Source: Patescibacteria group bacterium (GTDB taxonomy: Bacteria; Patescibacteriota; WWE3; 0-14-0-20-40-13). Taken from it: 64,000 bases of DNA. The position numbers and the translations under genes were made by a program. This document shows, one piece after another, positions 7,533-42,484 of the stretch (position 1 is the first letter of the stretch; the number at the start of each line of letters is the position of its first letter). Below the pieces are notes generated by a model. The model saw only the letters and a program-made list of their open reading frames with translations. It did no database searches and was not told the origin of the DNA. The stretch lies in contig JAHINB010000003.1 of the NCBI GenBank assembly GCA_018896215.1, positions 3,776 through 67,775 of the forward strand, read 5' to 3'.

Positions 7533-7988
7533 TTGCCGATGCCTGTAATTGCTGAAAACAAAAAGGCCTACTTTGAATATTTTATCGAAAAGGAATTTGA
7601 AGCGGGTTTAAAGCTGTTAGGGCACGAGGTTAAAGCTTGCAGATTGCAAGGAGCGTCCCTTGTGGGATCGTTCGTTCGGGTGGTAAAAAATGAAGCGTTT
7701 GTAATAAATGTTCTAATTCCAGTGTATAAAAAGGCTGGTGGGTCAGTAGTAGGATTGTACGACCCAAAAAGATCTCGCAAGCTCCTTTTGCATAAAGGAG
7801 AAATAAATGCCATAATTGGCGCACAAAGTCGCAAGGGATATGCGATTGTACCTTTAAAACTTTATACGGAAGGTGATTTGATAAAAATTAAGATTGGGAT
7901 TGGGCGGGGCAAAAAGTTGTATGATAAGAGGGAAGAGTTAAAGAAAAGACAGATTCAAAGAGAGATGATGAGAGAAGCTAAAGAATAG
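7533..7988 (+). CDS. smpB: SsrA-binding protein SmpB
   Basis: AENKKAYFEY...KLLGHEVK...PKRSRKLLLHK...; this is canonical SmpB, and it sits next to the tmRNA. Confidence 0.9.
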   Translation: MPMPVIAENKKAYFEYFIEKEFEAGLKLLGHEVKACRLQGASLVGSFVRVVKNEAFVINVLIPVYKKAGGSVVGLYDPKRSRKLLLHKGEINAIIGAQSRKGYAIVPLKLYTEGDLIKIKIGIGRGKKLYDKREELKKRQIQREMMREAKE

Positions 7989-8088: not shown

Positions 8089-8486
8089 GGGGATGATGGG
8101 AATCGATTGGTAAACAAGGCGTAAAAATCAAGCCGAAAATGTTGGGTATTTTCGTTAAGATCCCAACAAAACACAAATGCTGAAGAAGCAAGTTTCGTTC
8201 CTGTAGAAGAGTACGCTTTGGCGTACGCCTAAACAGGTGTTTGGCGCCGTTTTCTTTTAGCGGACGCGCCAGGCACAACCAGAGCTAAAAGAGGTTAGAA
8301 TAGTTATGCAGGTTATCTATATTTTAATCTGATTGGGTTTCCAATCGAACTTATAACCCGGTGAGGGGGTTTTTCTTGTTCTTTTACCCCCAAAATCGCG
8401 ACTTCATTAAAAGAATAAACAAGCTTGTAAAAATTTTTGCGATATTGTTTGTCAACACGGGGGTTCAACTCCCCCCATCTCCACCA
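8089..8486 (+). ncRNA. ssrA: tmRNA (ssrA)
   Basis: The 5' GGGGATG pairs with the 3' CATCTCC-ACCA. The 3' tRNA-like T-arm is GGGGGTTCAACTCCCCC followed by ...CCACCA. An internal tag-like frame ends ...EEYALAYA-TAA, resembling the canonical ...ENYALAA. The gene sits immediately downstream of smpB. Confidence 0.8.
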
Positions 8487-8624
8487 TGCTTCACTAAAGT
8501 TTCGCATGGCGCAGCCACATATAAGGAATTTTCCAAATCGGCGAAGCCATGAGAAAATTTAGGCTGAAGCATGAGTGCCCTTCGTAGCTCCGAACTAAGC
8601 GAGGAGCGTAGTAGGGCTATTGTT

Positions 8625-8900
8625 ATGTCCATGTACTATGTATATATAATTCAGAGTGTATCCAACCCAAATAAAACTTATGTTGGATATACAGAGGATC
8701 TCAAAAAGAGAATCTTTGAACATAATATTGGAGCGAACAAATCTACAGAAAATTTTAAACCGTGGAAGCTTCTTTCCTACATAGCCCTTACAGATAAATA
8801 TCAAGCGTTACAATTAGAGAAGTATCTAAAACAAGGATCTGGAAAAGCTTTTATGAACAAGCATCTAATAACTATAAGCTCCCCCCATGAACAACTATAA
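8625..8900 (+). CDS. GIY-YIG nuclease family protein (small stand-alone)
   Basis: MYYVYIIQS...YVGYTEDLKKRIFEHN is a GIY-YIG motif. The ORF-track start at 8571 is probably too far upstream; the likely start is MSMYYVY. Confidence 0.65.
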   Translation: MSMYYVYIIQSVSNPNKTYVGYTEDLKKRIFEHNIGANKSTENFKPWKLLSYIALTDKYQALQLEKYLKQGSGKAFMNKHLITISSPHEQL

Positions 8901-10719: not shown

Positions 10720-11481
10720 TTAAGAGAATTTCTTTTTTATGTAGTCGGTAATATAGATAAATAATTTAGCAAGATTTTCTCTCTCATTTATTCTAATAAA
10801 GGGTTTTAAGTCCTGAATAAATTCCTTTTCGTTAAAGGCTGTAAGTCTCTCAATAAACTCCTTTTTATTGAATTTCTCTCTATAGTAGGCAAGCTTTTTG
10901 TCAATTAGGTTAAAATCAATTTTTCCACCTAGTTCTATTAAAACCCATAAATCATAAAGATCCCGCATTTTTTTGCGAGTTAAGATTGCCCTAACCTTCT
11001 CAGCAATAATTTCATTAATGCTTAACGAGTTAATGTAATTTTTAACGATTATGGGATAGACAGTTTCCATAATTCTATTTTGTGGCTCGATTACGCTTTC
11101 TCTAAAGGAAAAATCCAGTTTTACATATACTGGTGTTTTAAATCCCAAGATAGTTGTGGTCAAAAGATATGACTTACCAACCAAAGCTTTTTTGGCTTTG
11201 CATTTAATGGGGTATTTACTCTCTACATCAGAAAAAACTTTTAAAATCTCGCTTTCAAAAACGGGGAGATCTAAATTTGCAGTAAAATCTAAATCTTCCG
11301 AGAAACGACTTCCTCCATATAACAACCTAATTGCAGTACCACCTTTAAAATAGATATCTCTAGAAAATTTATATGAGTAAAGTTCGTTTAAGAAAAGTAT
11401 TTGAATAAACTCCCGAGCAATAACACTTTCGTCAATTTTGTTTTTACTTGCCAACTCTTTTATTTGATCTAGAGAAATCAT
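10720..11481 (-). CDS. Nucleotidyltransferase AbiEii/AbiGii toxin family (type IV TA toxin, DUF1814)
   Basis: FKGGTAIRLLYGGSRFSEDLDFT is the hallmark NTase motif of AbiEii. Confidence 0.8.
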   Translation of the reverse strand: MISLDQIKELASKNKIDESVIAREFIQILFLNELYSYKFSRDIYFKGGTAIRLLYGGSRFSEDLDFTANLDLPVFESEILKVFSDVESKYPIKCKAKKALVGKSYLLTTTILGFKTPVYVKLDFSFRESVIEPQNRIMETVYPIIVKNYINSLSINEIIAEKVRAILTRKKMRDLYDLWVLIELGGKIDFNLIDKKLAYYREKFNKKEFIERLTAFNEKEFIQDLKPFIRINERENLAKLFIYITDYIKKKFS

Positions 11482-17301: not shown

Positions 17302-17364
17302 GGAAATATGAGGGGATCATGCGCGTTTCGTATTTGGTACAATGAATCTAGGAATCAAAAAACT

Positions 17365-18318
17365 ATGAATTTAGAAAATTTACCAGAACATTTGGTGCAG
17401 TCCCCAATTTGGGGAAAATTTAAGACCCAAATGGGAACGCCAGCGTACACCGCGGGCGGTGTGCAATTTACCCTCCACAAATTACCTCTTTTGCCTTACT
17501 ACTTGGCATATGCTCCCAAGATCAATCTCAAGAATATTAACTATGAGGAAGTGGGTAAAGTTGCCGAATCAAAAAATGCGGTAGCCGTGCGTTTTGATGC
17601 ACCTAATGTTGTTTTGGCTGATGATACAGCAAAAAGTCGGGTACTACCCGATTCGGGTAGTACCCGATATAATGTTGTACCTGCGCCAAAAGATACTTTT
17701 GCTAAGTACAATATTCTTTTAGATTTAACTCCAAACGAAGAAACGCTTTTTAAAAATCTTAAATCCAAAACCCGTTACAACATCAGACTTGCCCAAAAAA
17801 ATGGCGTTGTAGTCAAGAAATCGAACGACATAAATACATTTTTAGAGCTCAATCGCAAAACCGCAAAAAGGCAGGGTTTTTTTGTCCACGCAGATTCTTA
17901 TTACAAAACTATGTTCGAGATCTTGCAAAAGGAAGGTTTGGCCTATCTATTTATTGCTTATTTAAATAACGAGCCACTTGTTGCTTGGATTCTAATCTGC
18001 TATCAAGGGGTTTTGTATTATCCTTACGGAGCTTCTTCCGAAAAACACAAAGAGGTTATGGCGTCCAACCTAATGATGTGGGAGGCAATAAAATTTGGAA
18101 AAGAAAAAGGTTGTAAACTGTTTGATATGTGGGGGGCAACTAACGATGAAAAAGACCCCTGGTGGGGGTTTACGAGATTTAAGTTGGGATATGGGGGAGA
18201 GTTGGTTAAATACATGGACTCCTTCGATCTCGTTATTAATAAACCGATATATAGACTATTTAATGGGGTGTATAGATTATTTTGGTTTTTTCTCAATTTA
18301 AAAAAGCTATGGATCTAA
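17365..18318 (+). CDS. FemAB-family aminoacyltransferase (peptidoglycan interpeptide bridge formation), copy 1
   Basis: FemAB-like layout: ...SKTRYNIRLAQKNGV..., acceptor-type fold. It contains the 31-nt REP-like palindrome at 17637-17667 within the reading frame. Confidence 0.7.
   Translation: MNLENLPEHLVQSPIWGKFKTQMGTPAYTAGGVQFTLHKLPLLPYYLAYAPKINLKNINYEEVGKVAESKNAVAVRFDAPNVVLADDTAKSRVLPDSGSTRYNVVPAPKDTFAKYNILLDLTPNEETLFKNLKSKTRYNIRLAQKNGVVVKKSNDINTFLELNRKTAKRQGFFVHADSYYKTMFEILQKEGLAYLFIAYLNNEPLVAWILICYQGVLYYPYGASSEKHKEVMASNLMMWEAIKFGKEKGCKLFDMWGATNDEKDPWWGFTRFKLGYGGELVKYMDSFDLVINKPIYRLFNGVYRLFWFFLNLKKLWI
17637..17667. repeat. 31-nt perfect palindrome TCGGGTACTACCCGA-T-TCGGGTAGTACCCGA inside the FemAB CDS (REP-like)
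   Basis: Read directly from the sequence. A copy identical over 30 of 31 nt occurs at 46435-46465 in an intergenic region. Confidence 0.6.
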
Positions 18319-19208
18319 GGCAAACAAAACACTGGGGAGAGTATTTAAAAGCTTTAGGCTGGGACTCTTTAGAAACAAAAGGCAATAATTTGAGGATAAA
18401 AAAGCTAGGAGTATTGGGGAGTATTATAAAAATCCAAAGACCGCGGGAGCTAAACGAAAAAATTCTCCAACAAATTGCCACAATTGCCCAAAAAGAAAGG
18501 GCAATTATTGTTAAACTAGAGCCTAATTTGGGGTTTAATGACGAAAGATTGCTTGCAAAGTATGGTTATAAAAAAGATACCTGGCCCACAGTTCCTGCCC
18601 ACACTATCATTTTAGACTTGAGTGACAACATTCCCAACACTTACACAAAAGACGCCCGATATTCTATTAGAAAAGCCGAAAAAGCGGGCATTCTCACCAA
18701 GTTTTTTAAAACCACAAACCCCCAAGCTCAAAAAGAATTTTATAAACTCTATAAAGAATCCGCCAAGGGAAAGTTTTTTGTGTCCTCATTTGAAAAGGAT
18801 TTTATTCCCAAATGCCAGGCGCTGGATAAGAGCTCATTTATAGCGTTAGCCTCGTGTGACAACAAGAATAAGGGATTATCCCAAATTTGGGATAATCCCT
18901 ATTCAGGGGCGTTTGTTTGTGTGGTTGGTGATACGGCACACTATCTGCACGCAGGTACCACTCAAGAGGGTAAGGACACAGGCGCCCCTTACAAGTTAAT
19001 CTTGGAGATTTGTCAAAAACTAAAAAAAGATAAAGTTAAGTATTTGGACTTGGAAGGAATTTATGATCCCAGATATCCTAAATTTACCAAAGGTTGGCAG
19101 GGGTTTACCCATTTTAAAAGCCAATTCGGTGGGCGCATCATGGAATTTCCGCCGTCATATACAAAGTACCGTGGCTTGCTTAAACTTCTTGCTAGTTTTA
19201 GCTATTAA
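18309..19208 (+). CDS. FemAB-family aminoacyltransferase, copy 2
   Basis: Paralogous to the upstream gene (...DARYSIRKAEKAG...). Its ATG overlaps the upstream stop. Confidence 0.65.
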   Translation: MDLRQTKHWGEYLKALGWDSLETKGNNLRIKKLGVLGSIIKIQRPRELNEKILQQIATIAQKERAIIVKLEPNLGFNDERLLAKYGYKKDTWPTVPAHTIILDLSDNIPNTYTKDARYSIRKAEKAGILTKFFKTTNPQAQKEFYKLYKESAKGKFFVSSFEKDFIPKCQALDKSSFIALASCDNKNKGLSQIWDNPYSGAFVCVVGDTAHYLHAGTTQEGKDTGAPYKLILEICQKLKKDKVKYLDLEGIYDPRYPKFTKGWQGFTHFKSQFGGRIMEFPPSYTKYRGLLKLLASFSY

Positions 19209-19223
19209 TTGTAGACTTTATGT

Positions 19224-19523
19224 ATGTTCTTTAATAACGCCCTAGCTTATACAATTTCTAACCCCACGCAGTACGGCGATATTGGATCTATTGTCACGAC
19301 CCTTATTCCCAACATCTATATGGTTGCGGGACTGATTTTCTTTTTCCTATTGGTAATGGGAGGGATTAATTATATGATGGCAGGGGGCGATGACAAGGCT
19401 ATTAACAAAGCCAAAAACACCCTCACCGCCGCGGTGATTGGTTTTGCTATAGTATTTGGAAGTTTGTTTGTGATTAAAATTTTAGAAATTGTTTTGGGGA
19501 TTAAATTGTTTTCCATAGGATAA
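19224..19523 (+). CDS. Pilin-like small membrane protein (VirB2/TrbC-like, T4SS-pilin-like), array member 1
   Basis: Hydrophobic helix - GGINYMMAGGDDKAINKAKNTLT - second hydrophobic helix. Shares the core motif with the eight downstream paralogs. Confidence 0.6.
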   Translation: MFFNNALAYTISNPTQYGDIGSIVTTLIPNIYMVAGLIFFFLLVMGGINYMMAGGDDKAINKAKNTLTAAVIGFAIVFGSLFVIKILEIVLGIKLFSIG

Positions 19524-20147
19524 ATGTCTACAAATAATTATTCTGCTAGGTTGATTGCGGTTCTCCTTGGAGTCTTTTTGGGTTTAATTTTTGTGTCCCG
19601 AAGCGTTCTGGCCTATTGCGAGGATAGTACTGGTCAAAGATATGATGTTTTGTGCAATACAGATAGTCAATGTCAACAGGATACAGTTGTTATTGGCGGA
19701 GTCGGGGAGAGAATCTGTATGGTAGGAATTATTTGTCAGCTAAATGTTGCTGCTCCTGTCGGTGCCAGGATGGCTCCAGGTTTTAACAATGCTCTTCCTG
19801 CCTCCGAAAAGGGAGTCTGTGTGTCTTCGTTGGGGTATATAAACATTGCTCGAAACAAAATTGTTGGCGGATACAGTTTAACGGGAACTGGTTTGCGGGA
19901 TCTGATTAACAATGTTACCTTGGCGGTGGGTGTTGTTGTGGGGCTAATATTTTTTGTGATGCTGATTTTGGGTGGAATTGCGTACATGATGAGTAGTGGA
20001 GACGAAAAACAGCTAACTAAAGCTAAGCAACAAATAACCGCAGGACTCATTGGGCTGGTGATTGTTTTTATGGCGTGGTGGGTGGTAAAAATAATTAGTG
20101 TAATTTTTGGAATTAATATTTTACAACCGTCATTTACAGGTCCTTGA
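19524..20147 (+). CDS. Pilin-like protein, array member 2, with an N-terminal Cys-rich extension
   Basis: Signal peptide, a roughly 90-aa region with 7 Cys, then the core ...GGIAYMMSSGDEKQLTKAKQQITAGLIG..., ending PSFTGP-TGA. Confidence 0.6.
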   Translation: MSTNNYSARLIAVLLGVFLGLIFVSRSVLAYCEDSTGQRYDVLCNTDSQCQQDTVVIGGVGERICMVGIICQLNVAAPVGARMAPGFNNALPASEKGVCVSSLGYINIARNKIVGGYSLTGTGLRDLINNVTLAVGVVVGLIFFVMLILGGIAYMMSSGDEKQLTKAKQQITAGLIGLVIVFMAWWVVKIISVIFGINILQPSFTGP

Positions 20148-20150
20148 TAT

Positions 20151-20528
20151 ATGAATATTTTACTTGCAAGAACATTTGATCTTTTTGATAAAACTAAACC
20201 CGCTGATGGTATTTTCGGAGTGATCCCAGGCTCTCAAAAAGATGCCGCCCTTGGAGGTAGTGCGAATTTGTTTGTTGAGACAATAAGTTATGTGGTTATT
20301 GCTGCGGGAGTTGTTGCGGGGCTGATACTATTGGGAATGTTGATAATGGGAGCAATAACTTACATGACGAGTGCGGGAGACGAAAAGGTTTTAACTAGAG
20401 CCAAACAACAGATGACTAACGCCGTTATTGGGTTTGTTATTATAGCTATGTCTTATTGGATTGTTAGAATTATTGGTACAATTTTTGGATTACCGAATAT
20501 TTTAAAACCAACATTTATAGGTCCATAA
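20151..20528 (+). CDS. Pilin-like protein, array member 3
   Basis: Core ...GAITYMTSAGDEKVLTRAKQQMTNAVIG..., ending PTFIGP-TAA. Confidence 0.6.
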   Translation: MNILLARTFDLFDKTKPADGIFGVIPGSQKDAALGGSANLFVETISYVVIAAGVVAGLILLGMLIMGAITYMTSAGDEKVLTRAKQQMTNAVIGFVIIAMSYWIVRIIGTIFGLPNILKPTFIGP

Positions 20529-20531
20529 AAT

Positions 20532-20891
20532 ATGACAAAAAACTTATTGGCGATAACAGAATTTAAACCGGATAAATATATTGGTGGGGTGCTTCCTAGC
20601 CAGAGTTCCGGCGCTACCCAGCCCGCCGAGTCAATTTTTGGTCAAACGGTGCAGTATATAATTTCTGCTGCATTTGTCATCTCGGGACTTGCCTTTCTGG
20701 TGACTTTTATTATGGGGGCGTTTACTTACCTATCCAGCGCTGGGGATGAGAAGCAGTTGGATAAGGCCAAAAAGACTATGACTAATGGCGTGATAGGCTT
20801 TGTAATTATGGCAGTAACATTTTTGATCGTTAACCTATTAGAGAATATCTTTGGGATAGCGCTTACTACTTTTACATTTGAAGGACTTTAA
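20532..20891 (+). CDS. Pilin-like protein, array member 4
   Basis: Core ...GAFTYLSSAGDEKQLDKAKKTMTNGVIG... Confidence 0.6.
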   Translation: MTKNLLAITEFKPDKYIGGVLPSQSSGATQPAESIFGQTVQYIISAAFVISGLAFLVTFIMGAFTYLSSAGDEKQLDKAKKTMTNGVIGFVIMAVTFLIVNLLENIFGIALTTFTFEGL

Positions 20892-20897
20892 AATATT

Positions 20898-21512
20898 ATG
20901 ACTACTAATTATGGGAATTTAAATCCAGTTGGGTACTTTGGTAGCGCCATAAAAACTGGGCAATTTGTTTCGGTGATTATTACGGTAATAACTGTTGTTG
21001 CTGGGCTGTACTTTTTAGTTAACCTTGCCATGGGGGGTTTAAGCTACGCCACAAGTGCGGGGGACGAAAAGGAGCTTGCCAAGGCTAGAAAAACACTTAG
21101 CAACGCGCTATTGGGGTTTCTTCTTGTGGTATCTTCATATTTTATTTCTGGTTATGTGGCTTTAAGACTTGGAATGCAAGATATTCTAAAACCTGCCATT
21201 AATACCGCAAGCAATACCTCCCTTGTATGTGTAAATATTACTATGACTCCAGCGAACCCGTCTACCACAGTTGCCTCTTATGATATATATCTGCACTCTG
21301 CTGGTGTAGACTTTTACAAATCACACTGGACAAAGACGGTTGGTGAGGATGTCATATCTTTAAGTTTTTCTAAATCTGCATTTCCAGTTGTAGCAGTGAC
21401 AGCACTTGTGGTACCTATTATTCCAGGTGCTGGAGCCCAGCCTCCGAAAATAGGAATGTTGGGCGCGTATGATGCGAATGGATGCTACTTTACAGAATTT
21501 GATAATTTGTAA
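20898..21512 (+). CDS. Pilin-like protein, array member 5, with a roughly 90-aa C-terminal extension
   Basis: Core ...GGLSYATSAGDEKELAKARKTLSNALLG..., followed by an extra domain (LVCVNITMTPANPST...). Confidence 0.6.
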   Translation: MTTNYGNLNPVGYFGSAIKTGQFVSVIITVITVVAGLYFLVNLAMGGLSYATSAGDEKELAKARKTLSNALLGFLLVVSSYFISGYVALRLGMQDILKPAINTASNTSLVCVNITMTPANPSTTVASYDIYLHSAGVDFYKSHWTKTVGEDVISLSFSKSAFPVVAVTALVVPIIPGAGAQPPKIGMLGAYDANGCYFTEFDNL

Positions 21513-21518
21513 TCAATT

Positions 21519-21869
21519 ATGGAGAAAAAATTTCTAACATTTAGCCTAGGGGATGTAAAAAACAACGCTATACCTAACGCAGTTCCGCAAACTGGTAGTA
21601 ATACATATACTGGGAACATAGAGTCTATCATCAGTGTTATTATTGGAACGATAACAATTATTGCTGGTGTTGCCTTGTTGCTCTACTTGGCGATGGGGGC
21701 GTTTACCTATATGACAGCAGGGGGGGACGAAAAGGCGGCGACCAAAGCTAAAGGCATGATCACGGATGCGGTGATTGGACTGATTATAGTTGTTGCCAGC
21801 ATGACCATTGCGACAATTTTATTAAAGATTTTTGGATTAGATATTAAAGCCCTGCCCTGGTATTCCTAA
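21519..21869 (+). CDS. Pilin-like protein, array member 6
   Basis: Core ...GAFTYMTAGGDEKAATKAKGMITDAVIG... Confidence 0.6.
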   Translation: MEKKFLTFSLGDVKNNAIPNAVPQTGSNTYTGNIESIISVIIGTITIIAGVALLLYLAMGAFTYMTAGGDEKAATKAKGMITDAVIGLIIVVASMTIATILLKIFGLDIKALPWYS

Positions 21870-21871
21870 TT

Positions 21872-22219
21872 ATGAAATTAGCTGTTATTACAAACCCCGC
21901 TCTTCCCTCCGGATCGTCGGTGCAAACCGCCTCGGGTTTTGCTAACTATGTTTCGATTGCTCTGCGCACCATGTACATTATCGGTGGTGTTGCCATGACC
22001 GTAATTTTAGTTTATGGGGGACTCATGTACATTACCAGCGTCGGCGACGATAAAGCGCTTTCTAAAGCTAAAAAAATTATGACCGACGCTATTATTGGCA
22101 TTATAATTTTGGCTTCTACCATTCCCATCGCTAAAATTTTAGAAAGTATTTTTGGCTTAAATATCTTTAATATTAGTTTTCCGGCTTTTTCTGATTTTAT
22201 TGGAGTTGGAGGAACTTAA
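21872..22219 (+). CDS. Pilin-like protein, array member 7
   Basis: Core ...GGLMYITSVGDDKALSKAKKIMTDAIIG... Confidence 0.6.
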   Translation: MKLAVITNPALPSGSSVQTASGFANYVSIALRTMYIIGGVAMTVILVYGGLMYITSVGDDKALSKAKKIMTDAIIGIIILASTIPIAKILESIFGLNIFNISFPAFSDFIGVGGT

Positions 22220-22220
22220 G

Positions 22221-22922
22221 ATGCTTGATTTAACTCAATTGATCGCCCCAGTTTACGCCGCCGTTTCTGGCGGGACAGTAGATACCAGCTCCTGGCAACC
22301 GGAAAACTTTAAAGGGCTGATAGAAATCGCCATTCGGACGCTTTTTGTGGTTGGGGGCGTAGCCTTTGTGATTTTGTTTTTAGTTGGCGCAATACGATAT
22401 ATCACTAGCGGGGGAGATGTTAAAGCGGTGGATGGGGCAAAGAAAAATATTACCGCGGCAATTGTGGGGGTTTTGATTTTAGCTTCGGTTTACACTGTGG
22501 CGTGGTTTTTAAATAGGACCCTGGGCGCGCCGACTTTTGGTGGAGTTGTTAGTTGGACAGGGAGTGGGGGTGGGTACACCAGTCCCCCTGGAGTTGGCGC
22601 AATCCCAAGTGGTTGCGCACCAGATAATTGTCCATTTGATGGTAGAACTGGCAATAACCGTTGTTTTGGAGGCTGGACTTTTGGTTGCGATTTAGTTTCT
22701 GATCCCAAACAAAAATCTAAGTGCTTTAGATTAAGCAATGCTTCTGGTGGATGGGATTCGGGAAGTCACAACAAATGGATCTTAAATGCTTGTCAAGTTC
22801 CGGGAGAAACAGATCCAGCAAAAACTCTTGTCGATTTTCCGGTTGGTGATTGGGGTGATGTCTGTGTTCCTCATGATCAAGGCGTGAGTTCTAAATCTTG
22901 TGATTGTGGACAATGCTTGTAG
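22221..22922 (+). CDS. Pilin-like protein, array member 8, with a C-terminal Cys/Gly/Trp-rich domain
   Basis: ATG at 22221 preceded by a GGAGGAA SD. Core ...GAIRYITSGGDVKAVDGAKKNITAAIVG..., then a roughly 120-aa tail with 10 Cys (GCAPDNCPFDG...CDCGQCL). Confidence 0.6.
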   Translation: MLDLTQLIAPVYAAVSGGTVDTSSWQPENFKGLIEIAIRTLFVVGGVAFVILFLVGAIRYITSGGDVKAVDGAKKNITAAIVGVLILASVYTVAWFLNRTLGAPTFGGVVSWTGSGGGYTSPPGVGAIPSGCAPDNCPFDGRTGNNRCFGGWTFGCDLVSDPKQKSKCFRLSNASGGWDSGSHNKWILNACQVPGETDPAKTLVDFPVGDWGDVCVPHDQGVSSKSCDCGQCL

Positions 22923-22996
22923 TTCCGAATGCTTGCAAAGAGATTAGTTGTTAGTTACAATGATTAAAGTTTAACTTGGGAGGTGAGTAAATTACT

Positions 22997-23410
22997 ATGA
23001 ACTTCAAAAAAATACTCGGATCGGTGTCGCTTGCCACAGCAACCGCCTTGTCTTTGGTCAAAGGTGTGTTTGCGGCTGGTGTGGATTTGTCCATACAAAC
23101 AGGAACTTTTCCAACTGGTTCGCAAAGGTCGTTTGGAAGCTTTTTTAGCTTTGCCATCAGAATACTGTTTGCCTTGGGCGGAATCCTGATGCTGGTCTTT
23201 TTGATTATGGGTGGGATTCGCTACATTACCAGCGGAGGCGACAAATTGCAGGCGCAAGGCGCCAGAGACATGATTACCAACGCTTTAATTGGAATCATTA
23301 TTATTGCCGCATCTTACGCTATAGCAACTTTGCTGAATAGCTTGTTTGGAATTGATATCTTTAATGCTACAATCAGTATTCCAATGACCAATCCTGTTGT
23401 TTCACCATAA
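22997..23410 (+). CDS. Pilin-like protein, array member 9
   Basis: Strong GGGAGGTGA SD, a clear signal peptide (MNFKKILGSVSLATATALSLVKGVFA), and core ...GGIRYITSGGDKLQAQGARDMITNALIG... Confidence 0.6.
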   Translation: MNFKKILGSVSLATATALSLVKGVFAAGVDLSIQTGTFPTGSQRSFGSFFSFAIRILFALGGILMLVFLIMGGIRYITSGGDKLQAQGARDMITNALIGIIIIAASYAIATLLNSLFGIDIFNATISIPMTNPVVSP

Positions 23411-23411
23411 A

Positions 23412-23465
23412 CTCAAATCGCGCGATTTGAGACGCAAAAGCCGCGGTTTTTACCGCGGTTTTTGG
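23412..23465. terminator. Bidirectional terminator region between the pilin array (+) and the serine hydrolase gene (-)
   Basis: Perfect 20-nt palindrome CTCAAATCGCGCGATTTGAG at 23412-23431, then CCGCGG-TTTTTA-CCGCGG-TTTTT at 23441-23463. T/A runs flank it on both strands. Confidence 0.6.
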
Positions 23466-25177: not shown

Positions 25178-26359
25178 GTGGGTTACACTGTACCTAACAT
25201 GATAAAAAGACAAATAATCTTGCCTCAAAATACAAGCTTTTTTCTTTTCGGACCACGCGGTACTGGAAAATCTTATCTTATAAAGGAGCGTTATCCTAAA
25301 TCTGTGTACATAGACTTACTAGAATCCGATACATACCGACAGCTACTAGCAAAACCAGAGAGATTAAGGGAATACGCAACATTAAACAAGAATCTTCCTG
25401 TAGTTATTGACGAAATACAAAGAGTTCCAAATCTATTAAACGAAGTTCACCGCCTAATCGAAAACGAAAAGATAAACTTTGTACTTACTGGATCGAGTGC
25501 TAGAAAACTTAAAGAAACGCAAGCCAATTTACTTGCAGGTAGGGCATTAAAATACAATCTATTTCCACTAACTCTTTCGGAGATAGGGAAAGATGTATCT
25601 TTAGATAGGATTTTAAAAGACGGTCTATTGCCAACTATTTACGACCCTAATAAAAATATCGATCCAGCTAAGTATCTGGAGAGCTATGTACAGATTTACC
25701 TAGAGGAAGAAGTTTTACAGGAGGGTTTAACTAGAAACTTAGCCAATTTTTCGCGTTTCCTAGAAATTGCAAGTTTTTCTCAAGGGCAACAACTAAATGT
25801 GTCAGAAGTAGCAAGAGAATCATCTATAAACAGAAAGGTTGCTGAATCCTACTTTAGAATTTTGTATGATTTACTAATTGCTTACGAACTTCCAGTTTTT
25901 AAAAAAAGAGTAAAAAGAAAACTGGTATCTCAAAGCAAGTTTTATTACTTTGATGTCGGAGTTTATTCCACAATAAAGCCAAAGGGGTTTTTGGATAGGA
26001 GAGAAAATGGAGAAGGCATACTTTACGAAAGCCTTGTTCTCCAGGAAATTGTGGCTACCAACTCTTATCTAGGCTCAAAATACGAAATTAGTTACTGGAG
26101 AACAAAAAGTGGTGTCGAGGTAGATTTTGTGCTTTACGGGGAAGACAAATTAATTGCAATAGAGGTTAAAAGAAAAGATAATATTTTAAAAAGTGATATT
26201 ACTGGGTTGTTAACATTTAAAACCGATTATCCTATGGTAAAGTCGTTTGTCTTTTACGGAGGAGATAAGATATTAAATATAAATGGTGTTATAGCTATAC
26301 CAATAAAAGAGGCTCTTTTGAACTTAACGGAGATATTCCAAGGAAGCTATCCAGGTTAG
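25178..26359 (+). CDS. AAA+ ATPase, AAA_14/DUF4143 family (paralog 2)
   Basis: Walker A GPRGTGKSYL and Walker B VVIDEIQ, with a DUF4143-like C-terminus. Confidence 0.8.
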   Translation: MGYTVPNMIKRQIILPQNTSFFLFGPRGTGKSYLIKERYPKSVYIDLLESDTYRQLLAKPERLREYATLNKNLPVVIDEIQRVPNLLNEVHRLIENEKINFVLTGSSARKLKETQANLLAGRALKYNLFPLTLSEIGKDVSLDRILKDGLLPTIYDPNKNIDPAKYLESYVQIYLEEEVLQEGLTRNLANFSRFLEIASFSQGQQLNVSEVARESSINRKVAESYFRILYDLLIAYELPVFKKRVKRKLVSQSKFYYFDVGVYSTIKPKGFLDRRENGEGILYESLVLQEIVATNSYLGSKYEISYWRTKSGVEVDFVLYGEDKLIAIEVKRKDNILKSDITGLLTFKTDYPMVKSFVFYGGDKILNINGVIAIPIKEALLNLTEIFQGSYPG

Positions 26360-26785: not shown

Positions 26786-27967
26786 CTAAAGAACAACTGG
26801 TGATAAAAACCCTGGTTTTTCCAGAAATCTTTTTGAGACGACATAATTTTGAGATATTCCAAGTTCTAAAGATAAAGTGGAGAGTTTGGAAAAATCCCGC
26901 ACTGTTCCAGTAAGTTTTATCTCGAAAGCAATATGTTTATCTAAAATAGCGTCAATCTCGGCGGTATTGCGTTTATTATAGAAACTGATTTTATTGTAGC
27001 CCGAAAGTTGGTTTATAACAGCATTCTCAAATACCTGTGCTTCGCTCACTTTTCCAATCACATTCAAAAGTCCAGTGTCCGTAAAGAAGACCTTTTTACC
27101 TCCTGCTACGGCTCTATCAATACTATTGCTAAATCTTGGCAAAAGCCGAATAAAAAATGTCCCCTGCAAAAATTCAAGAAAACGATATATCTTTACTCTA
27201 TCAATAGAGAGCTCACTGGATAAACGGGTTACATCAAGCATTGACCCAACTCGGGGAACCAGAAGTAAAATCATATCTCGAAGTTCTCGAATATCTGTGT
27301 AGTCTGATAATATTTTAATATTTTTTTCAAAAAACGATGCGAAGATATTTTTGAGAACCATCACCTTCATATTTTTATCCTCTGTTGTTACCACTTCAGG
27401 AAAGCCACCGTATGTGAGAAAATCATCATATTCTGCAACACGCGCTTTATGAGTAAAAATACTATTTTTACTTGGCGCATCTTGTAAAGTAAGATTTAGA
27501 ATTTCCTTTAGAGAAACAACATCTCTAAAGTAGAGATATTCTTGGAAGCTTAATGGAGGAAGTTCGTACAAGAATTTACGACCAGATAAAGACTCGGGAA
27601 ATAGGGTTTTTAAGTAATAGTTGGAAGAACCTGTTAGATAGAATTTAACACTATAATGGTCGATTAGATACTTAATAACTTTAGTTATCTCAGGGAAATT
27701 TTGAATTTCGTCAATAAACACAGATAAATTACTAGCCTTTTTTCCCATGTCAGTAAGTCTTTTATAGATTACTCTGTAATCTTCGTCTTCAAATATTTTC
27801 TGATCGAGTGGGTTACCAAAATCAAACCACAATTTTGGCTCTTTTACTTCTTCGTATATCTGGCGCATTAGAGTTGTCTTTCCGACTTGTCGCATACCAG
27901 TAATAAGAAGTGCGTTTTTATGATTGAGATGTTTTATTAATTCGTAATACAGAAGTCTCTTTTTCAT
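26786..27967 (-). CDS. AAA+ ATPase, AAA_14/DUF4143 family (paralog 3)
   Basis: Walker A GMRQVGKTTL and Walker B VFIDEIQ. Confidence 0.8.
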   Translation of the reverse strand: MKKRLLYYELIKHLNHKNALLITGMRQVGKTTLMRQIYEEVKEPKLWFDFGNPLDQKIFEDEDYRVIYKRLTDMGKKASNLSVFIDEIQNFPEITKVIKYLIDHYSVKFYLTGSSNYYLKTLFPESLSGRKFLYELPPLSFQEYLYFRDVVSLKEILNLTLQDAPSKNSIFTHKARVAEYDDFLTYGGFPEVVTTEDKNMKVMVLKNIFASFFEKNIKILSDYTDIRELRDMILLLVPRVGSMLDVTRLSSELSIDRVKIYRFLEFLQGTFFIRLLPRFSNSIDRAVAGGKKVFFTDTGLLNVIGKVSEAQVFENAVINQLSGYNKISFYNKRNTAEIDAILDKHIAFEIKLTGTVRDFSKLSTLSLELGISQNYVVSKRFLEKPGFLSPVVL

Positions 27968-31824: not shown

Positions 31825-32198
31825 ATAAGTTTGTAACGCTTTCGCTTCGCGAAACATTTTAGTATTTTTTCTCTAATCTTGTTATAGAAACTAGTTGACT
31901 TGGCTAGTTTAATAATTTAATGTAAGGTTGTTAGGATTACATTACAATATCCCTCGCCGAGGGAAAAAGCAGATGCTTAACTATAAATTGGCAAAATTAA
32001 TGACCACCTGTTTTTGGGTTTTTACCGAGGGTGGTTTTTTAGTCTCTAGCACTTTAAAAACTGAATATCTCATTAATTAAGCGGTAGCAAAATGCTCATC
32101 TCTTTTGAGTTGGCTATTTTGCTATCGCTTAAGCGTGGCTCCACAATTACTTTGTGGAAAGACAATTCCACTTTCAGTTCAGTTTTAGGAGGTTTTCC

Positions 32199-33287
32199 AT
32201 GTCTCGCTCAAAGATCGCTGTGTTGTTCGGCTTATCCCTTCTCGTGCTCATGAGTTCGTGCGCGAGTCCTGCCACCCCACAAGTGGTGGAAAAGATCGTT
32301 GAGAAGGTGGTCGTGGTCACTGCACAACCAGTTCCTGTAATCAAGCTCGTGCATCTCAATGTCCCGCTAGGGTGGGTAAACAATGACGAGTTCGTGGCGC
32401 TACAGGTGGCTCAAGCCAAGGGGTTCTATGCCGAGGCAGGCCTCGATGTCAACTTGATCTCTGGCGGTGGCTCCACCGGGTTCGATCCTCTGGTTGCCAT
32501 CATGGGTTTCGATGACAGTATTCGGATCGGTGTGCCGGCGGCAATGAGCTTGGTCGTCAAGGCCAAGTCGGAGGGTATTGATGTGGTAGCAGTGGCTGCC
32601 CTGACTCAAGAAGAGCCGGGCGGTTTCATTGCTCTTACCAAGTACGCCCCCCAGGCCACCGGGCTCTGTGACTTTAAGGGCAAGGTCGTCTCCATGCAAA
32701 CGGAGGCGACATGGTATGTAGATGCACTCGGAAAGCAATGCGTCACCGGTGCCCTAGTTGCTGGCGAGGACTTTACCGTCGTGCCGGCTGGTTGGACACC
32801 TGATTGCCTTCTGGCCACCGGCGCCAACCGTTGCGATTTTTATTGTGGTTGGGCGACCAACCAGGTGTTCGGTCTCGAGCAACAGGGGTTGAAGCTCGGA
32901 GTGGACTTCCAGTTCTTTCTGGCGAGCAAGTATCTGCCGTTTCACTATGCTGATGTCATCGTGGTGAACGGCGCCTGGGCCAGGAAAAACCCGGAGATCG
33001 TTCGTGGCTTCGTTCAAGCCTCGATGAAAGGGTTGCAATATACCCTCGATCATCCTGACGAAGCGGTACAGATTTCTGGTGCGGTACCGGGGATGGATCT
33101 GGCTCACGCCACCTGGCGTATCCCGATTCAGAACAGACTCGTTACCAACGAAGACACCGCCAAATTCGGTGTTGGGTACATCGATGTGGGCAAGGTTCAG
33201 GATATGATCAACCTTCTCGCCGAGAAGGACCAGATCAAGACCGAGTTCGATGCCAGCACCGTCGTCGACAGCTCGTATCTGAAGTAG
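32199..33287 (+). CDS. ABC transporter substrate-binding lipoprotein, NMT1/THI5-like (NitT/TauT family); part of the GC-rich island
   Basis: Lipobox LLVLMSSC and an NMT1-like periplasmic binding fold. Its GC-rich codon usage is unlike the flanking genes. Confidence 0.7.
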   Translation: MSRSKIAVLFGLSLLVLMSSCASPATPQVVEKIVEKVVVVTAQPVPVIKLVHLNVPLGWVNNDEFVALQVAQAKGFYAEAGLDVNLISGGGSTGFDPLVAIMGFDDSIRIGVPAAMSLVVKAKSEGIDVVAVAALTQEEPGGFIALTKYAPQATGLCDFKGKVVSMQTEATWYVDALGKQCVTGALVAGEDFTVVPAGWTPDCLLATGANRCDFYCGWATNQVFGLEQQGLKLGVDFQFFLASKYLPFHYADVIVVNGAWARKNPEIVRGFVQASMKGLQYTLDHPDEAVQISGAVPGMDLAHATWRIPIQNRLVTNEDTAKFGVGYIDVGKVQDMINLLAEKDQIKTEFDASTVVDSSYLK

Positions 33288-33320
33288 TTCTATGTTCTAC
33301 TATGAAATATGGAGGGTGAA

Positions 33321-34094
33321 ATGAACGCACTCGGGATTCAAGATCTGACCGTACGGTTCGGTAATCTAATTGCTCTTTCGCAAGTATCGTTGACAGTGCA
33401 AGAGCATGAGATCGTCGCCCTTATCGGTCCATCTGGATGCGGAAAGTCCACCCTCTTGCGTGCAACAGTCGGCATTGTGCCTGGCATGGTGCCGACTGCT
33501 CACTTAGAAGGCGGGATTGACCTCTTTGGAAAATCGCCGATCGAACGCCACAACGGCGAGGTCGATATGGTTTTCCAAGAGTCTTGTCTCCTGCCCTGGA
33601 GAACAACCCAAGCCAATATCAGGTTGGGTTTGGAAATTCTTGGCAGGAATGCAAATAACGGCACTTTACCGACCATCCTGGAAGCCATTGGGCTGACAGA
33701 CTTTGCCAATTGTAAACCCCGCGCGCTATCAGGTGGTATGCGCCAACGCGCCAGCTTGGCCACATCACTTGTGACTCACCCAAAACTCTTACTCATGGAT
33801 GAGCCTTTTGCCAACCTCGACTCCTTAACCAGAGAACAGATGTGGCAACTCGTAGAGCATCTACATTTGGATGATAAAATCCAAGCCGCATTGTTGGTAA
33901 CCCACTCCATTGAAGAGGCTGTTGCTTTGGCTGATCGGGTACTGGTAATGAGTGAGCGACCCGGTCAAATCATCGGTGAAGTGGTTGTAAGACTTCCTCG
34001 TCCTCGGATCACTCCAGAGGGGTTGTTGGTCGAAGGCTTTGGGGCGGTAGCCAACCAAGTCCGTCGTTTCATCCGCCACGGAGGTGAAGTATGA
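33321..34094 (+). CDS. ABC transporter ATP-binding protein (NitT/TauT family); GC-rich island
   Basis: GPSGCGKSTLLR, LSGGMRQRASLA and LLLMDEPFANLD motifs. SD GGAGGG precedes the ATG at 33321. Confidence 0.85.
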   Translation: MNALGIQDLTVRFGNLIALSQVSLTVQEHEIVALIGPSGCGKSTLLRATVGIVPGMVPTAHLEGGIDLFGKSPIERHNGEVDMVFQESCLLPWRTTQANIRLGLEILGRNANNGTLPTILEAIGLTDFANCKPRALSGGMRQRASLATSLVTHPKLLLMDEPFANLDSLTREQMWQLVEHLHLDDKIQAALLVTHSIEEAVALADRVLVMSERPGQIIGEVVVRLPRPRITPEGLLVEGFGAVANQVRRFIRHGGEV

Positions 34095-34834
34095 AAAGGT
34101 CACAATGGCTGGTACCGCTGGTGACCCTCACCTTCCTGCTTGTGGCCTGCGAAGTGTCACTGACGCTGGCGCGAGTATCAACCTTCATTTTCCCCAAGCC
34201 AACGCTGATCGTCAAAGCGTTGGTTGAAAACTGGGGTTGGATCGTTGCCAACTTGCAAGTCACAGCCATGGAAGCAGTTGTCGGTTTCGCCCTTAGTATT
34301 GTGCTTGGGATAACACTGTCGACGGTTTGTCTGTTTGTCCCGCAAGCCGAGAACCTCGTCGTGCCTTTCGCCATCGCCATTCGCAATGTGCCGTTTGTTG
34401 CTTTGGCGCCGATTCTCTTCATGACGATGGGATATGGTCCCTGGCCCAAGATCATCATCGTTATGATCGTTAGTTTCTTTCCAATCATGACCAATCTTAC
34501 GGCTGGATTTGCAAGCGCAGAAGTCGCTCAAAAGGAAAGATTCTTTGTATGGCGAGCGACCCGTTGGCAGATGTTTGTCAAGCTTCAACTGCCTTCGGCT
34601 ATCCCGTATTTTGTGGCAGGGTTGGAAATCGCGGTTAGTAACATCATCATTGCCGCGATCGTTGGCGAATTGATGGGAACGACCAAGGGCTTAGGATTGG
34701 TCATTATTATGGCCGTGTCCCAGTACCGGTTTCCTTTGCTGATGGCAACCGTAGTGGTTACGACAGCACTGTCAATTGTGACTACATGGTTGCTACGCCA
34801 GGCAATGCGAATTGCCTTTTCACCTTGGAATTAA
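34091..34834 (+). CDS. ABC transporter permease (BPD_transp_1, NitT/TauT family); GC-rich island
   Basis: Six TM helices and an EAA-like loop region. Its start overlaps the ATPase stop. Confidence 0.8.
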   Translation: MKRSQWLVPLVTLTFLLVACEVSLTLARVSTFIFPKPTLIVKALVENWGWIVANLQVTAMEAVVGFALSIVLGITLSTVCLFVPQAENLVVPFAIAIRNVPFVALAPILFMTMGYGPWPKIIIVMIVSFFPIMTNLTAGFASAEVAQKERFFVWRATRWQMFVKLQLPSAIPYFVAGLEIAVSNIIIAAIVGELMGTTKGLGLVIIMAVSQYRFPLLMATVVVTTALSIVTTWLLRQAMRIAFSPWN

Positions 34835-34846
34835 GGAGAGTACACC

Positions 34847-35764
34847 GTGGACTACCAATCAATCCTGGATGTTTGTAGAAGTCAGTTTGAGGCTGATGCG
34901 GCGCGAACCGCATCTGTCGGAGGTTCCGGTACCCTTGCACTGGACAAGCGTGGAGGCATCGGTTTTCCCGAGGCCCTCACTTGTGTTTGCAACGATCGGA
35001 TTCTTCGATTCGAAGAGGTGTCAACGCCATTTGGGGATGTTCCGATGGTCAAACTCTTCGCAGTCAACGGCCAACCGGTCGTGCGGATTCCGATGCACGG
35101 TTGGCGATTGCCAGTGGCGACGCTCGAACACACTCAAGCAACCTTTTGGCTACTGGATCAGCTTGGCGTTCATCAAGTGCTCGTTGACGCTAGCGTTGGT
35201 GGGATCGGAGCCAAACCCATGGATGTCGTCATCCCCGATGATGTCTACAACCACGAGCCTGCCAAGATCGCTATGGCAAAGTTGGCCTTTGAATTGGGAA
35301 GAGACCCCTGGGTTCGGATGTATCAACCCTTCTGTCCCCGCTTAAGAAGCAAGTTGGTTACCTCAGTTCGTCAGGTTAAGACGGAAGGTCATGAACTTGG
35401 CGATCTCGTCGACGGCGGGGTCTACTGGACCACGCCTCTTGGTCCGTTTGAAACGGCTTTCGAGATAGCCACCTTCAAGACTCTTGGGGCTACCATCGTT
35501 GGCCAATCATCGGGGCAGGAAGCCCTAGCCGCTCGTATTCTTGGAATGTGTTTGGCTGTGGCCAACCCGGTTGTTAACTTTGCCGAAGGGCTCAACAACG
35601 CAGGCTGGTCTGGGGACAAAGGCATGGATTCCATGTACGAAGCCATCTCTATGCCCATGGCCCTCATGGTTTACTACACTCTTGAGCGAATCGTCAGCCA
35701 GACCCGCACCTGCGACTGCCAAACCATTGCTCACAGCCCTGATTTAGCTGGGCTGACATCGTAA
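34847..35764 (+). CDS. PNP/MTAP-family nucleoside phosphorylase-like protein; GC-rich island
   Basis: The C-terminal ...GATIVGQSSGQEALAARILGMCLAVANPVVNFAEG... parallels the MTAP/PNP family-1 active-site region (G..VG.T.VPE..LA.E.G.C...A.V.N.A). GTG start with an AAGGAG SD. Confidence 0.5.
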   Translation: MDYQSILDVCRSQFEADAARTASVGGSGTLALDKRGGIGFPEALTCVCNDRILRFEEVSTPFGDVPMVKLFAVNGQPVVRIPMHGWRLPVATLEHTQATFWLLDQLGVHQVLVDASVGGIGAKPMDVVIPDDVYNHEPAKIAMAKLAFELGRDPWVRMYQPFCPRLRSKLVTSVRQVKTEGHELGDLVDGGVYWTTPLGPFETAFEIATFKTLGATIVGQSSGQEALAARILGMCLAVANPVVNFAEGLNNAGWSGDKGMDSMYEAISMPMALMVYYTLERIVSQTRTCDCQTIAHSPDLAGLTS

Positions 35765-35783
35765 TTAGGATTAGGAGGAACCT

Positions 35784-36314
35784 GTGTCCAACATTCAAGT
35801 CCTAGCTACCGAGAGGCAAATCAGGCAAGCCGTGAGAAGGATTGCTCGAGAAGTCTCTCGGCGGTACCAGGAGGAGTCGATTCTTCTGGTTGGAGTTCTC
35901 ACCGGCGCTTTCGTTTTCATGGCGGATCTGGCGAGGGAGCTCTACCGTATGGGGATGACAGATGTCGAAATCGAGTTCATCGACATATCTTCGTATAGTG
36001 GTACGGAGTCTGGGCAGATCCGTTTCGATCGTGACCTGACCGTTCCCATCAGCGGTCGGCATGTGGTGATTGTGGAGGATATCATCGATACCGGGGCAAC
36101 GCTGGCGTTCCTGTTGAAGCTCCTCGAAGTCAGGGAACCAGCCAGTTTGATTGTAGTTGCCCTGTTCAACAAGGTCACCCGGCGGGTTGAAACCCTCCCG
36201 TCAGAACGGATCATAACGGGAATTGACCTGCCTAACAAGTTCGTGGTCGGCTACGGTCTTGACCGTAACGGAAAGTTTCGGCATCTCCCTTTTGTGGGGA
36301 TTGTCGCAAGTTGA
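35784..36314 (+). CDS. hpt: Hypoxanthine(-guanine) phosphoribosyltransferase; GC-rich island
   Basis: VVIVEDIIDTGATLAFLL PRPP motif and an HPRT-like length. GTG start with an AGGAGGAA SD. Confidence 0.85.
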   Translation: MSNIQVLATERQIRQAVRRIAREVSRRYQEESILLVGVLTGAFVFMADLARELYRMGMTDVEIEFIDISSYSGTESGQIRFDRDLTVPISGRHVVIVEDIIDTGATLAFLLKLLEVREPASLIVVALFNKVTRRVETLPSERIITGIDLPNKFVVGYGLDRNGKFRHLPFVGIVAS

Positions 36315-42175: not shown

Positions 42176-42484
42176 ATGCACTATATCTATCTGGTGCGTT
42201 GTGTGGATAATTCCTTGTACTGTGGGCAAACCACGGATTTGTCTCGTCGTGTCAATGAGCATAATTTTGATGGTAAAAAATCTGCCAAGTACACCAAAGG
42301 CAGAAGACCAGTAATTCTCGTCTATTCTGAAGAATTTGCCACATTCTCTGAAGCCTTAAAACGGGAATTAAAAATTAAACGCCTTCCAAAAGCAAAAAAG
42401 GAGGTCTTGGTTAATTCGGGATACTCCCATGAAAAACGCAATTATTTTATTGGAATTGTCCCAAATGGGACAGACCCGATTTAG
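42176..42484 (+). CDS. GIY-YIG nuclease family protein (second small stand-alone copy)
   Basis: IYLVRCVDNSLYCGQTTDLSRRVNEHN is a GIY-YIG motif. Confidence 0.65.
   Translation: MHYIYLVRCVDNSLYCGQTTDLSRRVNEHNFDGKKSAKYTKGRRPVILVYSEEFATFSEALKRELKIKRLPKAKKEVLVNSGYSHEKRNYFIGIVPNGTDPI

Follow-up and report, generated by a model that had tools for sequence, protein, structure and literature searches.

The window analysed here is a stretch of 64,000 nucleotides (nt; 64 kb) from the contig JAHINB010000003.1 of a Patescibacteria group bacterium, and it carries an array of nine tandem genes for small pilin-like proteins, numbered m1 to m9 in gene order and all located on the + strand. Three of these proteins bear an additional module, m2 between its signal peptide and the pilin core, m5 and m8 at the C-terminus. 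On balance we lean towards the interpretation that the modules are hypervariable, disulfide-stapled parts for the recognition of a partner or host, carried on the outward side of a VirB2-like pilus or of a membrane anchor; their topology, their disulfides, their place in a pilus and their binding function are inferred. The combination of a conserved scaffold, fixed slots, extreme sequence turnover, shuffling and cassette exchange found at this locus is the signature of an interface with variable partners.

The nine paralogs, all of the PF18895 type, occupied positions 19224-23410 (+) of the window. Consecutive genes from m1 to m8 were separated by 0-6 nt and m8 from m9 by 74 nt. The three extended open reading frames (ORFs) were found where a preliminary description of this DNA had placed them. 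The features of the array were as follows (lengths in amino acids, aa; scores in bits against PF18895):

19224..19523, +, member 1, short T4SS_pilin paralog of 99 aa without cysteine (Cys), two hydrophobic helices and a short charged loop, 30.1 bits
19524..20147, +, member 2, extended pilin of 207 aa, 44.5 bits on aa 122-191; signal peptide aa 1-30 (19524-19613), 6-Cys N-module aa 31-116 (19614-19871), core aa 117-207 (19872-20147)
20151..20528, +, member 3, short paralog of 125 aa, 33.7 bits
20532..20891, +, member 4, short paralog of 119 aa, 34.5 bits
20898..21512, +, member 5, extended pilin of 204 aa, 25.6 bits (slightly below the cutoff); core aa 1-92 (20898-21173), C-module aa 93-204 (21174-21509), predicted at low confidence to be beta-rich, with Cys 111 and Cys 196
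21519..21869, +, member 6, short paralog of 116 aa, 33.1 bits, with a weak match to TrbC/VirB2 PF04956
21872..22219, +, member 7, short paralog of 115 aa, 26.4 bits (just short of the cutoff)
22221..22922, +, member 8, extended pilin of 233 aa, 23.1 bits (below the threshold); core aa 1-114 (22221-22562) ending in the junction PTFGG(V/I)(V/I)SWxG, then a Gly-rich linker and 10-Cys C-module aa 115-233 (22563-22919)
22997..23410, +, member 9, pilin paralog of 137 aa with a signal peptide and its own Shine-Dalgarno sequence, 25.8 bits, outside the recombining block described below
23441..23458, +, likely terminator of the pilin operon, a GC-rich hairpin CCGCGG-TTTTTA-CCGCGG followed by TTTTT and common to a convergent beta-lactamase-like gene (from the sequence and a terminator scan)

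The m8 start codon (ATG at 22221) is preceded by GGAGGAAC, and m9 has a promoter-like site at 22933-22961.

All nine proteins matched PF18895 (T4SS_pilin), which comprises the VirB2/TrbC-like type IV secretion system (T4SS) pilins of Patescibacteria, with E values from 1.7e-11 to 7.7e-5. The scores of m1, m2, m3, m4 and m6 were above the gathering score of 26.6 bits, and those of m5, m7, m8 and m9 lay at 23.1-26.4 bits, at most 3.5 bits under it. The NCBIfam model NF045849, which describes a pilin-like protein of Mycoplasma integrative and conjugative elements (ICEs), was also matched by nine of nine, weakly, at 16-33 bits (best 32.9), under its curated cutoff of 40. The paralogs could be aligned with each other over a core of about 85 aa only, with a mean column identity of 25%. 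In this core a conserved Y-x-T-S-x-GD-x-K...KAK loop connects two hydrophobic helices; hydropathy and charge analysis placed three to four Lys/Arg residues in the loops, and the GD-x-K...KAK helix-loop-helix was kept in all nine paralogs and in the four lineages compared below. The hairpins of m5 and m8 were modelled confidently by AlphaFold2 (predicted local distance difference test, pLDDT, 82-90). The highest-probability Foldseek match, which was not significant, was the archaeal conjugation pilin 8dfu, with a target-normalised TM-score of 0.70. Judged on these similarities, the array proteins are VirB2-like T4SS pilins, and the link to NF045849 is a resemblance at the level of homology, not membership.

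Identity as type IV pilins was considered and rejected. The class III prepilin motif G|F/M-x-x-x-E was present in none of 36 proteins of the four lineages when the first 45 aa were searched with a regular expression, the nine members gave no match to type IV pilin Pfam families, and PF18895 was matched instead. Because the proteins are VirB2-like and not type IV pilins, the type IV concepts of 'minor pilin' and 'tip adhesin' are not directly transferable. The preliminary description had proposed specialised binding subunits in those terms; the idea of specialised subunits agrees with the fixed positions and extreme turnover reported below, and the type IV pilus vocabulary had to be dropped.

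Mapping of the domain boundaries showed that the extra domains are real additions to a pilin core, as alignment of the extended proteins to the six short paralogs was limited to the core. In m2 the add-on of about 86 aa is N-terminal and lies between a canonical signal peptide and the core, the arrangement first described, and it contains six Cys (aa 32, 44, 50, 65, 71 and 99) where seven had been counted. The C-terminal add-on of m5, estimated earlier at roughly 90 aa, proved to be about 110 aa long with two Cys (aa 111 and 196). In m8 a C-terminal add-on of about 120 aa with 10 Cys was present as described, and its first spacing is C-x4-C-x10-C-x7-C in place of the reported C-x4-C-x9-C-x6-C. 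The Cys residues were confined to the modules, with 18 among the 317 module residues and none among the 1038 that make up the rest of the nine proteins (Fisher p = 3e-12), against a background of 0.8% Cys in the long ORFs of the window. The modules are predicted to be extracytoplasmic; their even Cys counts (6, 2 and 10) and invariant Cys frameworks are in keeping with extracellular stapling by disulfides.

Whether the long ORFs might result from missed stop codons or frameshifts had been raised in the preliminary description, and this was refuted by their exact recurrence in independent assemblies and DNA-identical contigs. The exact 207-aa protein, together with the 204- and 233-aa genes at the m5 and m8 positions, had been called from different runs in assemblies of ENA, NCBI and Logan. 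Four contigs (L009, L010, L011 and L023) were 100% identical to the window at the DNA level, the extended genes recurred exactly in at least five runs, and over m1-m8 the DNA of L008 did not differ from that of the window. Three further lineages likewise had fused ORFs of comparable length at these positions of the array. The PF18895 matches and the identical ORFs in independent assemblies bore out that these are pilin-family paralogs with true in-frame fusions.

Exact-protein look-ups and one metagenome scan gave four lineages for comparison: A (the window), B (L012-L015 and L024), C (L017 and L018) and D (L020 and L021). In all four, a nine-pilin array with extended members at positions 2, 5 and 8 was present together with two upstream FemAB-family genes. 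The lengths of m1-m9 were 99/207/125/119/204/116/115/233/137 aa in the window and 97/196/122/119/198/115/107/223/137, 100/194/118/118/212/109/107/230/131 and 98/186/120/114/203/104/108/220/132 aa in the three other lineages. All Cys residues of the four lineages lay in the modules of m2, m5 and m8 except two, one in the m2 signal peptide of B and one in an m5 helix of D.

The degree of conservation differed among the three modules. In the m2 module the six Cys and the C-terminal junction (S/E)(S/P)LG...GGY were invariant in four of four lineages, and the loops between the Cys varied in both length and sequence (blastp E = 5e-9 for A-C and 0.007 for B-C). Conservation of the m5 module was limited to its overall length and to the first and the last Cys, with no detectable similarity in any pair of lineages. 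The m8 module occurred in two types, alpha in A and D (44-50% identity, all 10 Cys conserved, the D ortholog being P0008) and beta in B and C (12 Cys). By blastp, the m8 modules of A and D matched each other (E = 6e-25), as did those of B and C (E = 1e-6); similarity between A and B, and between the alpha and beta types, was undetectable. The m8 cores gave a different picture, with 92% identity for A-B versus 67% for A-D. The type of the m8 module is therefore incongruent with the core tree, since the cores of A and B are closer and yet the module of A matches that of D. Such incongruence would imply either module exchange at the junction PTFGG(V/I)(V/I)SWxG or the retention of an ancient polymorphism.

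A sharply conserved PTFGG(V/I)(V/I)SWxG ahead of a variable Cys-rich C-terminus, with modules shuffled relative to their cores, is also what would be expected if the modules were cargo, namely Cys-rich toxins, bacteriocins or signals of a knottin-like kind that are cleaved off at the junction in the manner of polymorphic toxins. We consider this very unlikely. No immunity-like gene comes next, the following gene being another pilin; no toxin or knottin family was matched; and the N-terminal module of m2 does not fit a C-terminal toxin scheme. The 'knottin-like' label offered in the preliminary description was likewise unsupported, there being no Pfam or PDB match and the AlphaFold2 model of the Cys-rich module being of too low confidence.

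Additional PF18895 genes were seen in other contigs. In lineages C and D a tenth PF18895 pilin, absent from the window, lies on the opposite strand just past the array (L018 6687-7085, -; L020 9419-9799, -). The tenth pilin of L018 has one Cys in its N-tail and one in its C-tail, a pair that could link the two outward ends, in loose analogy to the head-to-tail cyclisation of TrbC/VirB2. An unrelated Patescibacterial contig (L019, SDBS01050579.1, 339-1088) contains a five-gene pilin array in which one member of about 245 aa is extended at its N-terminus by about 170 Cys-poor aa. Extended PF18895 pilins thus occur outside this clade, as the L019 array has one.

Two haplotypes, A (the window) and B (L012/L013), were compared gene by gene. 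The flanks were identical, with a synonymous divergence (dS) of 0 for hrcA, rsmA, femAB-1, member 9 and the beta-lactamase-like gene; femAB-2 had a dS of 0.23, and member 9 was 100% identical. The cores of m1-m8 had dS values of 0.73-1.5 with ratios of nonsynonymous to synonymous divergence (dN/dS) of 0.05-0.22, and the pilin cores are under purifying selection. The modules could not be aligned by blastn (19505-19863, 21160-21514 and 22563-22926), and forced alignments gave 23-27% identity. In the short members the identity was 87% in the hairpin, 73% in the N-tails and 60% in the C-tails. Divergence begins near 19007, inside the 3' end of femAB-2, and ends at 22926, just past the m8 stop codon, which delimits the following feature:

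19007..22926, divergent recombining block between A and B, comprising the 3' end of femAB-2 and members 1-8 (from blastn segments, per-gene dN/dS and site patterns at the left border)

A second set of contigs, L007 and L008, was 100% identical to the window over 18887-22926 (the m1-m8 block) and differed in the flanks, with a patch containing a 12-nt indel at 18818-18886, 29 nucleotide substitutions or other differences in member 9 and 46-64 in the downstream gene. Array haplotype A was thus combined with flank version 1 in the window, L023 and L025 and with flank version 2 in L007 and L008, and haplotype B was combined with flank version 1 in L013 and L024, each combination being found in at least two independent assemblies. 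Since block and flanks combine differently and each combination is replicated, the m1-m8 block of about 3.9 kb behaves as a recombining cassette within the population. Haplotypes A and B occurred together in sample ERZ928008 and also on two separate short contigs of the metagenome-assembled genome (MAG) bin GCA_018817985.1; a search through the conserved flank proteins recovered no third haplotype. The contigs of four other assemblies (L027-L030) stop at the left border of the array, and L008, L013 and L024 all end at the window equivalent of 24038. The locus is an assembly bubble at which bins mix strains.

The metagenomic origin of the sequences and the contig breaks at the array borders in several assemblies are features that an artefact (missed stops, frameshifts or assembly chimeras) could produce, and a diversity-generating retroelement is another way to generate local variation. 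Taken together we regard artefact and retroelement as extremely unlikely explanations of these observations. An artefact is contradicted by the exact repetition of the 207-aa product and of the m1-m8 DNA over at least five runs, by the replication of every flank and array combination, and by the fused ORFs kept in four lineages despite near-total sequence turnover. The retroelement was rejected on several grounds. When the DNA of each of the three modules was compared with the entire window by blastn, it matched only itself, giving no template repeat. A Pfam scan, which covered nearly all non-overlapping window ORFs of at least 100 aa, revealed no reverse transcriptase domain. The differences between the haplotypes were wholesale and not restricted to adenines.

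Hypervariability and strain-level polymorphism of the same kind would also be seen if the modules varied as shields or decoys against pilus-specific phages or predators that attack an exposed filament, and the presence of two deeply diverged haplotypes in one sample is as expected under negative frequency-dependent selection. Escape from enemies leaves unexplained why the Cys framework and the fixed positions were kept instead of the modules being lost, and it is compatible with a binding role; as the explanation of the modules we judge it quite unlikely.

The modules themselves were searched for relatives. In isolation they gave no Pfam match at E <= 10, and word-indexed protein searches with each module alone gave no match; searches of that type missed even the divergent orthologs recovered through synteny. 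An exhaustive HMMER search with the m8 module against 1.84 billion representatives returned the lineage-D ortholog and one match to the linker only (P0009). P0009, a protein of 1053 aa, was judged spurious as a relative of m8, since it matches the Gly-rich linker alone. It contains four '(V/I)DVSWTGNTTPTGYGILIPSGSAV' units and a divergent fifth, which resemble the SWTG...GY...IPSG linker of m8 (E = 5e-6), probably for compositional reasons. Profile searches of the PDB with the nine-paralog alignment, the four-lineage m2 module and the alpha-type m8 module gave no meaningful match. The m8 module was modelled by AlphaFold2 as disordered (pLDDT < 50), too low for the disulfide connectivity to be read. 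For m5 the core hairpin reached a pLDDT of about 90, and the module was modelled with seven beta strands at a pLDDT of 45-61; its Foldseek matches were generic Ig/FN3/CBM sandwiches with E >= 0.05, which is not significant.

We propose the following explanation for the locus. The array would be a nine-gene operon in which each product forms a helix-loop-helix membrane hairpin. The order of elements in m2 (signal peptide, Cys-rich module, helix 1, Lys-rich loop, helix 2) argues for an N-out, loop-in, C-out topology, in which the short Lys-rich loop would face the cytoplasm (the pilus lumen) and both termini would point outward. N-out, loop-in, C-out is the established topology of VirB2 and TraA pilins, and with it all three add-ons would share one side of the membrane, outside the cytoplasm. 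That side corresponds to the exterior of the filament in known conjugative pili, as seen in F-pilus structures and in the display of C-terminal epitopes on F-pilin. At its N-terminus, position 2 would bear a module with six Cys that a true Sec signal peptide exports; the add-ons of positions 5 and 8 would both be C-terminal, the former beta-rich, about 110 aa long and closed by a single pair of Cys, the latter containing 10 or 12 Cys. The most probable role of the modules would be to bind variable partners in adhesion to a host cell or surface. For display they might be minority subunits in a mosaic VirB2-type pilus built mainly of the six short paralogs, or they might be held at the cell surface by the hairpin. 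Large inserts are tolerated in filamentous-phage display only in mosaic coats, and the mosaic-pilus option draws on that analogy. Purifying selection would keep the scaffold (hairpin, junction motifs and Cys framework) while the module sequences turn over extremely fast, and strains would exchange the m1-m8 block of about 3.9 kb by homologous recombination in its conserved borders.

Several observations weigh against this explanation. VirB4, VirB6, VirB3, VirD4 and other T4SS genes were absent from the window ORFs scanned with Pfam, nearly all the non-overlapping ones of at least 100 aa, so that the tie to a secretion machine is putative here. T4SS machinery genes were likewise absent from the examined parts of L018 and L020, and no disulfide-forming enzyme was seen in the window. 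According to PMC12857230, no pilus has been demonstrated for any PF18895 member. A tight helical filament of the VirB2 type may be sterically unable to accommodate a module of about 100 aa on each of its subunits. The modules are lineage-restricted orphans without a recognisable fold or family and their AlphaFold2 confidence is low, for which reason binding is purely a matter of inference. All of the sequence is metagenomic and carries some residual risk of strain chimeras, though each junction was replicated.

The absence of T4SS machinery from the scanned window ORFs and the lack of an experimental pilus, together with the four of nine members under the Pfam cutoff, also speak for another arrangement, in which the array encodes small proteins of the surface or envelope that do not assemble into a pilus, the hairpin being a membrane anchor alone and the modules cell-surface domains held at the membrane. 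This we consider unlikely. The GD-x-K...KAK hairpin is kept in nine paralogs and four lineages, the proteins have family-level similarity to conjugative pilin-like proteins, and, according to PMC12102498, such arrays adjoin virB4 in many Patescibacteria.

Tandem pilin arrays as such are already known. Quinonero-Coronel et al. (2025; PMC12102498) report 441 Patescibacterial VirB2-like arrays of 2-11 genes with an average identity of about 25% and an enrichment in Microgenomatia; in about 40% of the VirB4-containing assemblies with pilin genes, the pilins lie away from virB4. A six-pilin array within the T4SS cluster of Southlakia epibionticum ML1 is described as essential for epibiotic growth (PMC10633639; PMC12857230), and a role of Patescibacterial arrays in adapting to host strains has been proposed (PMC12102498, PMC10633639 and PMC12857230). 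The array of the window resembles these in belonging to the same Pfam family and in consisting of divergent tandem paralogs, and its column identity of 25% matches their average. It differs from them in that no virB4 was found within the 64 kb, in having three fixed module-bearing members, and in forming a strain-level recombining block. Cys-stapled module pilins at conserved positions and strain-level cassette polymorphism were not found in the T4SS literature covered, which was available as passages and otherwise as titles; within that literature, module-bearing pilins and cassette polymorphism appear to be undescribed.

Other systems share some of these features. The pilin paralogs of Bartonella and Anaplasma are, to our knowledge, short pilins without fused domains, and both systems are of the diderm MPF-T (mating-pair formation, type T) kind with a separate VirB5 tip protein. 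TrwL/TrwJ of the Bartonella Trw system and the VirB2 copies of Anaplasma phagocytophilum (cited in PMC12102498), which are multiplied VirB2 and VirB5 paralogs from T4SSs adapted to hosts, are like the present array in being tandem variant pilins, which are thought to broaden surface interactions or to vary antigenically. The resemblance to Mbov_0395/MMCAP2_0565 of Mycoplasma ICEs (NF045849) extends to the core, the nine cores aligning over almost the whole 80-position model with E values of 4e-8 to 7e-3. Unlike the window genes, the members of that family are single-copy and lack add-on modules, and the window proteins score under its 40-bit cutoff. The conjugation in which that family takes part is of the monoderm kind, which agrees with the proposal in PMC12102498 that the Patescibacterial T4SS has an MPF-FATA ancestry.

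Analogies of evolutionary mode can also be drawn. The present array follows the logic of type IV pili, in which the polymerisation scaffold is conserved, the exposed and disulfide-stapled part varies, and strains exchange alleles. Type IV pili of Pseudomonas and Neisseria carry minor pilins or tip adhesins and have a hypervariable disulfide-bonded C-terminal region, with divergent alleles exchanged at a conserved locus. They differ from the array in family and machinery, in having a single N-terminal helix with a globular head versus a two-helix hairpin, and in the class III signal that is absent here. Modular receptor-binding proteins and polymorphic toxins, in which a motif separates a conserved N-terminal part from a swappable C-terminal module, show the same sharp conserved junction followed by unrelated or shuffled modules that are incongruent with the core phylogeny. 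No signs of toxin, immunity or phage genes were seen at the array, and that analogy is one of evolutionary mode alone.

A more specific form of the explanation is offered tentatively, as a possibility that we would not rate as probable. The locus might be a nine-gene 'display rack' with three fixed slots (the m2 N-terminus and the m5 and m8 C-termini) that display hypervariable binding modules, stapled by disulfides, on the pilus of a Patescibacterium, the entire rack being exchanged by recombination among co-occurring strains; its products would then be the first VirB2-family pilins with globular domains and a determinant of episymbiont specificity comparable to the receptor-binding cassettes of phages. 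The locus bears on the means by which ultra-small Patescibacteria recognise their hosts and adhere to them, VirB2-like pilin arrays being essential in the one species tested with no role assigned. The three modules, carried on conserved pilins, are the fastest-evolving and strain-discriminating parts of the region and are exchanged as a cassette, which offers a concrete hypothesis: if they are specificity determinants, the type of module should predict the host range. The locus would also extend the T4SS pilin repertoire to domain-bearing subunits, and it flags a site where metagenome assemblies systematically break and bins mix strains.

The genes directly upstream of the array were the same in all four lineages:

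17308..19208, +, two FemAB-family genes (peptidoglycan bridge aminoacyl-transferase-like; Pfam FemAB)

Corresponding FemAB pairs were located at L018 518-2319 and L020 3122-5112, with called genes also in L012, L020 and L021. The second FemAB gene holds, besides the left border of the recombining block in its 3' end, the variable patch at 18818-18886 with the 12-nt indel. The nearest other FemAB relatives in a contig scan were from Woesebacteria and Gottesmanbacteria MAGs (30-37% identity), and those contigs (L001-L006) had no pilin array nearby.

Elsewhere in the window, a GC-rich island at 32000-36300 (52% G+C versus 35-42% around it) contains genes for an NMT1-type binding protein, the ATPase and permease of an ABC system, a phosphoribosyltransferase and a PNP/UDP phosphorylase; it has the appearance of a cluster for the salvage of nucleosides or nutrients gained by horizontal transfer. 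Genes for three paralogous ATPases of the AAA_14 + DUF4143 type lie at 3140-4291, 25178-26359 and 26786-27967. Two AbiEii-type toxin nucleotidyltransferase genes, two genes for small GIY-YIG nucleases and an IS200-like Y1 transposase gene were found at 10720-11481 (-), 43106-43720 (-), 8571-8900, 42176-42484 and 58714-59343 (-), which suggests that mobile or defence-related content is scattered through the region. Two large ORFs at 365-2461 (698 aa) and 5863-7509 (548 aa) had no Pfam match at E <= 0.01. Among ordinary housekeeping genes, a tmRNA gene (Rfam, 107 bits) adjoins smpB (8089-8486 and 7533-7988).

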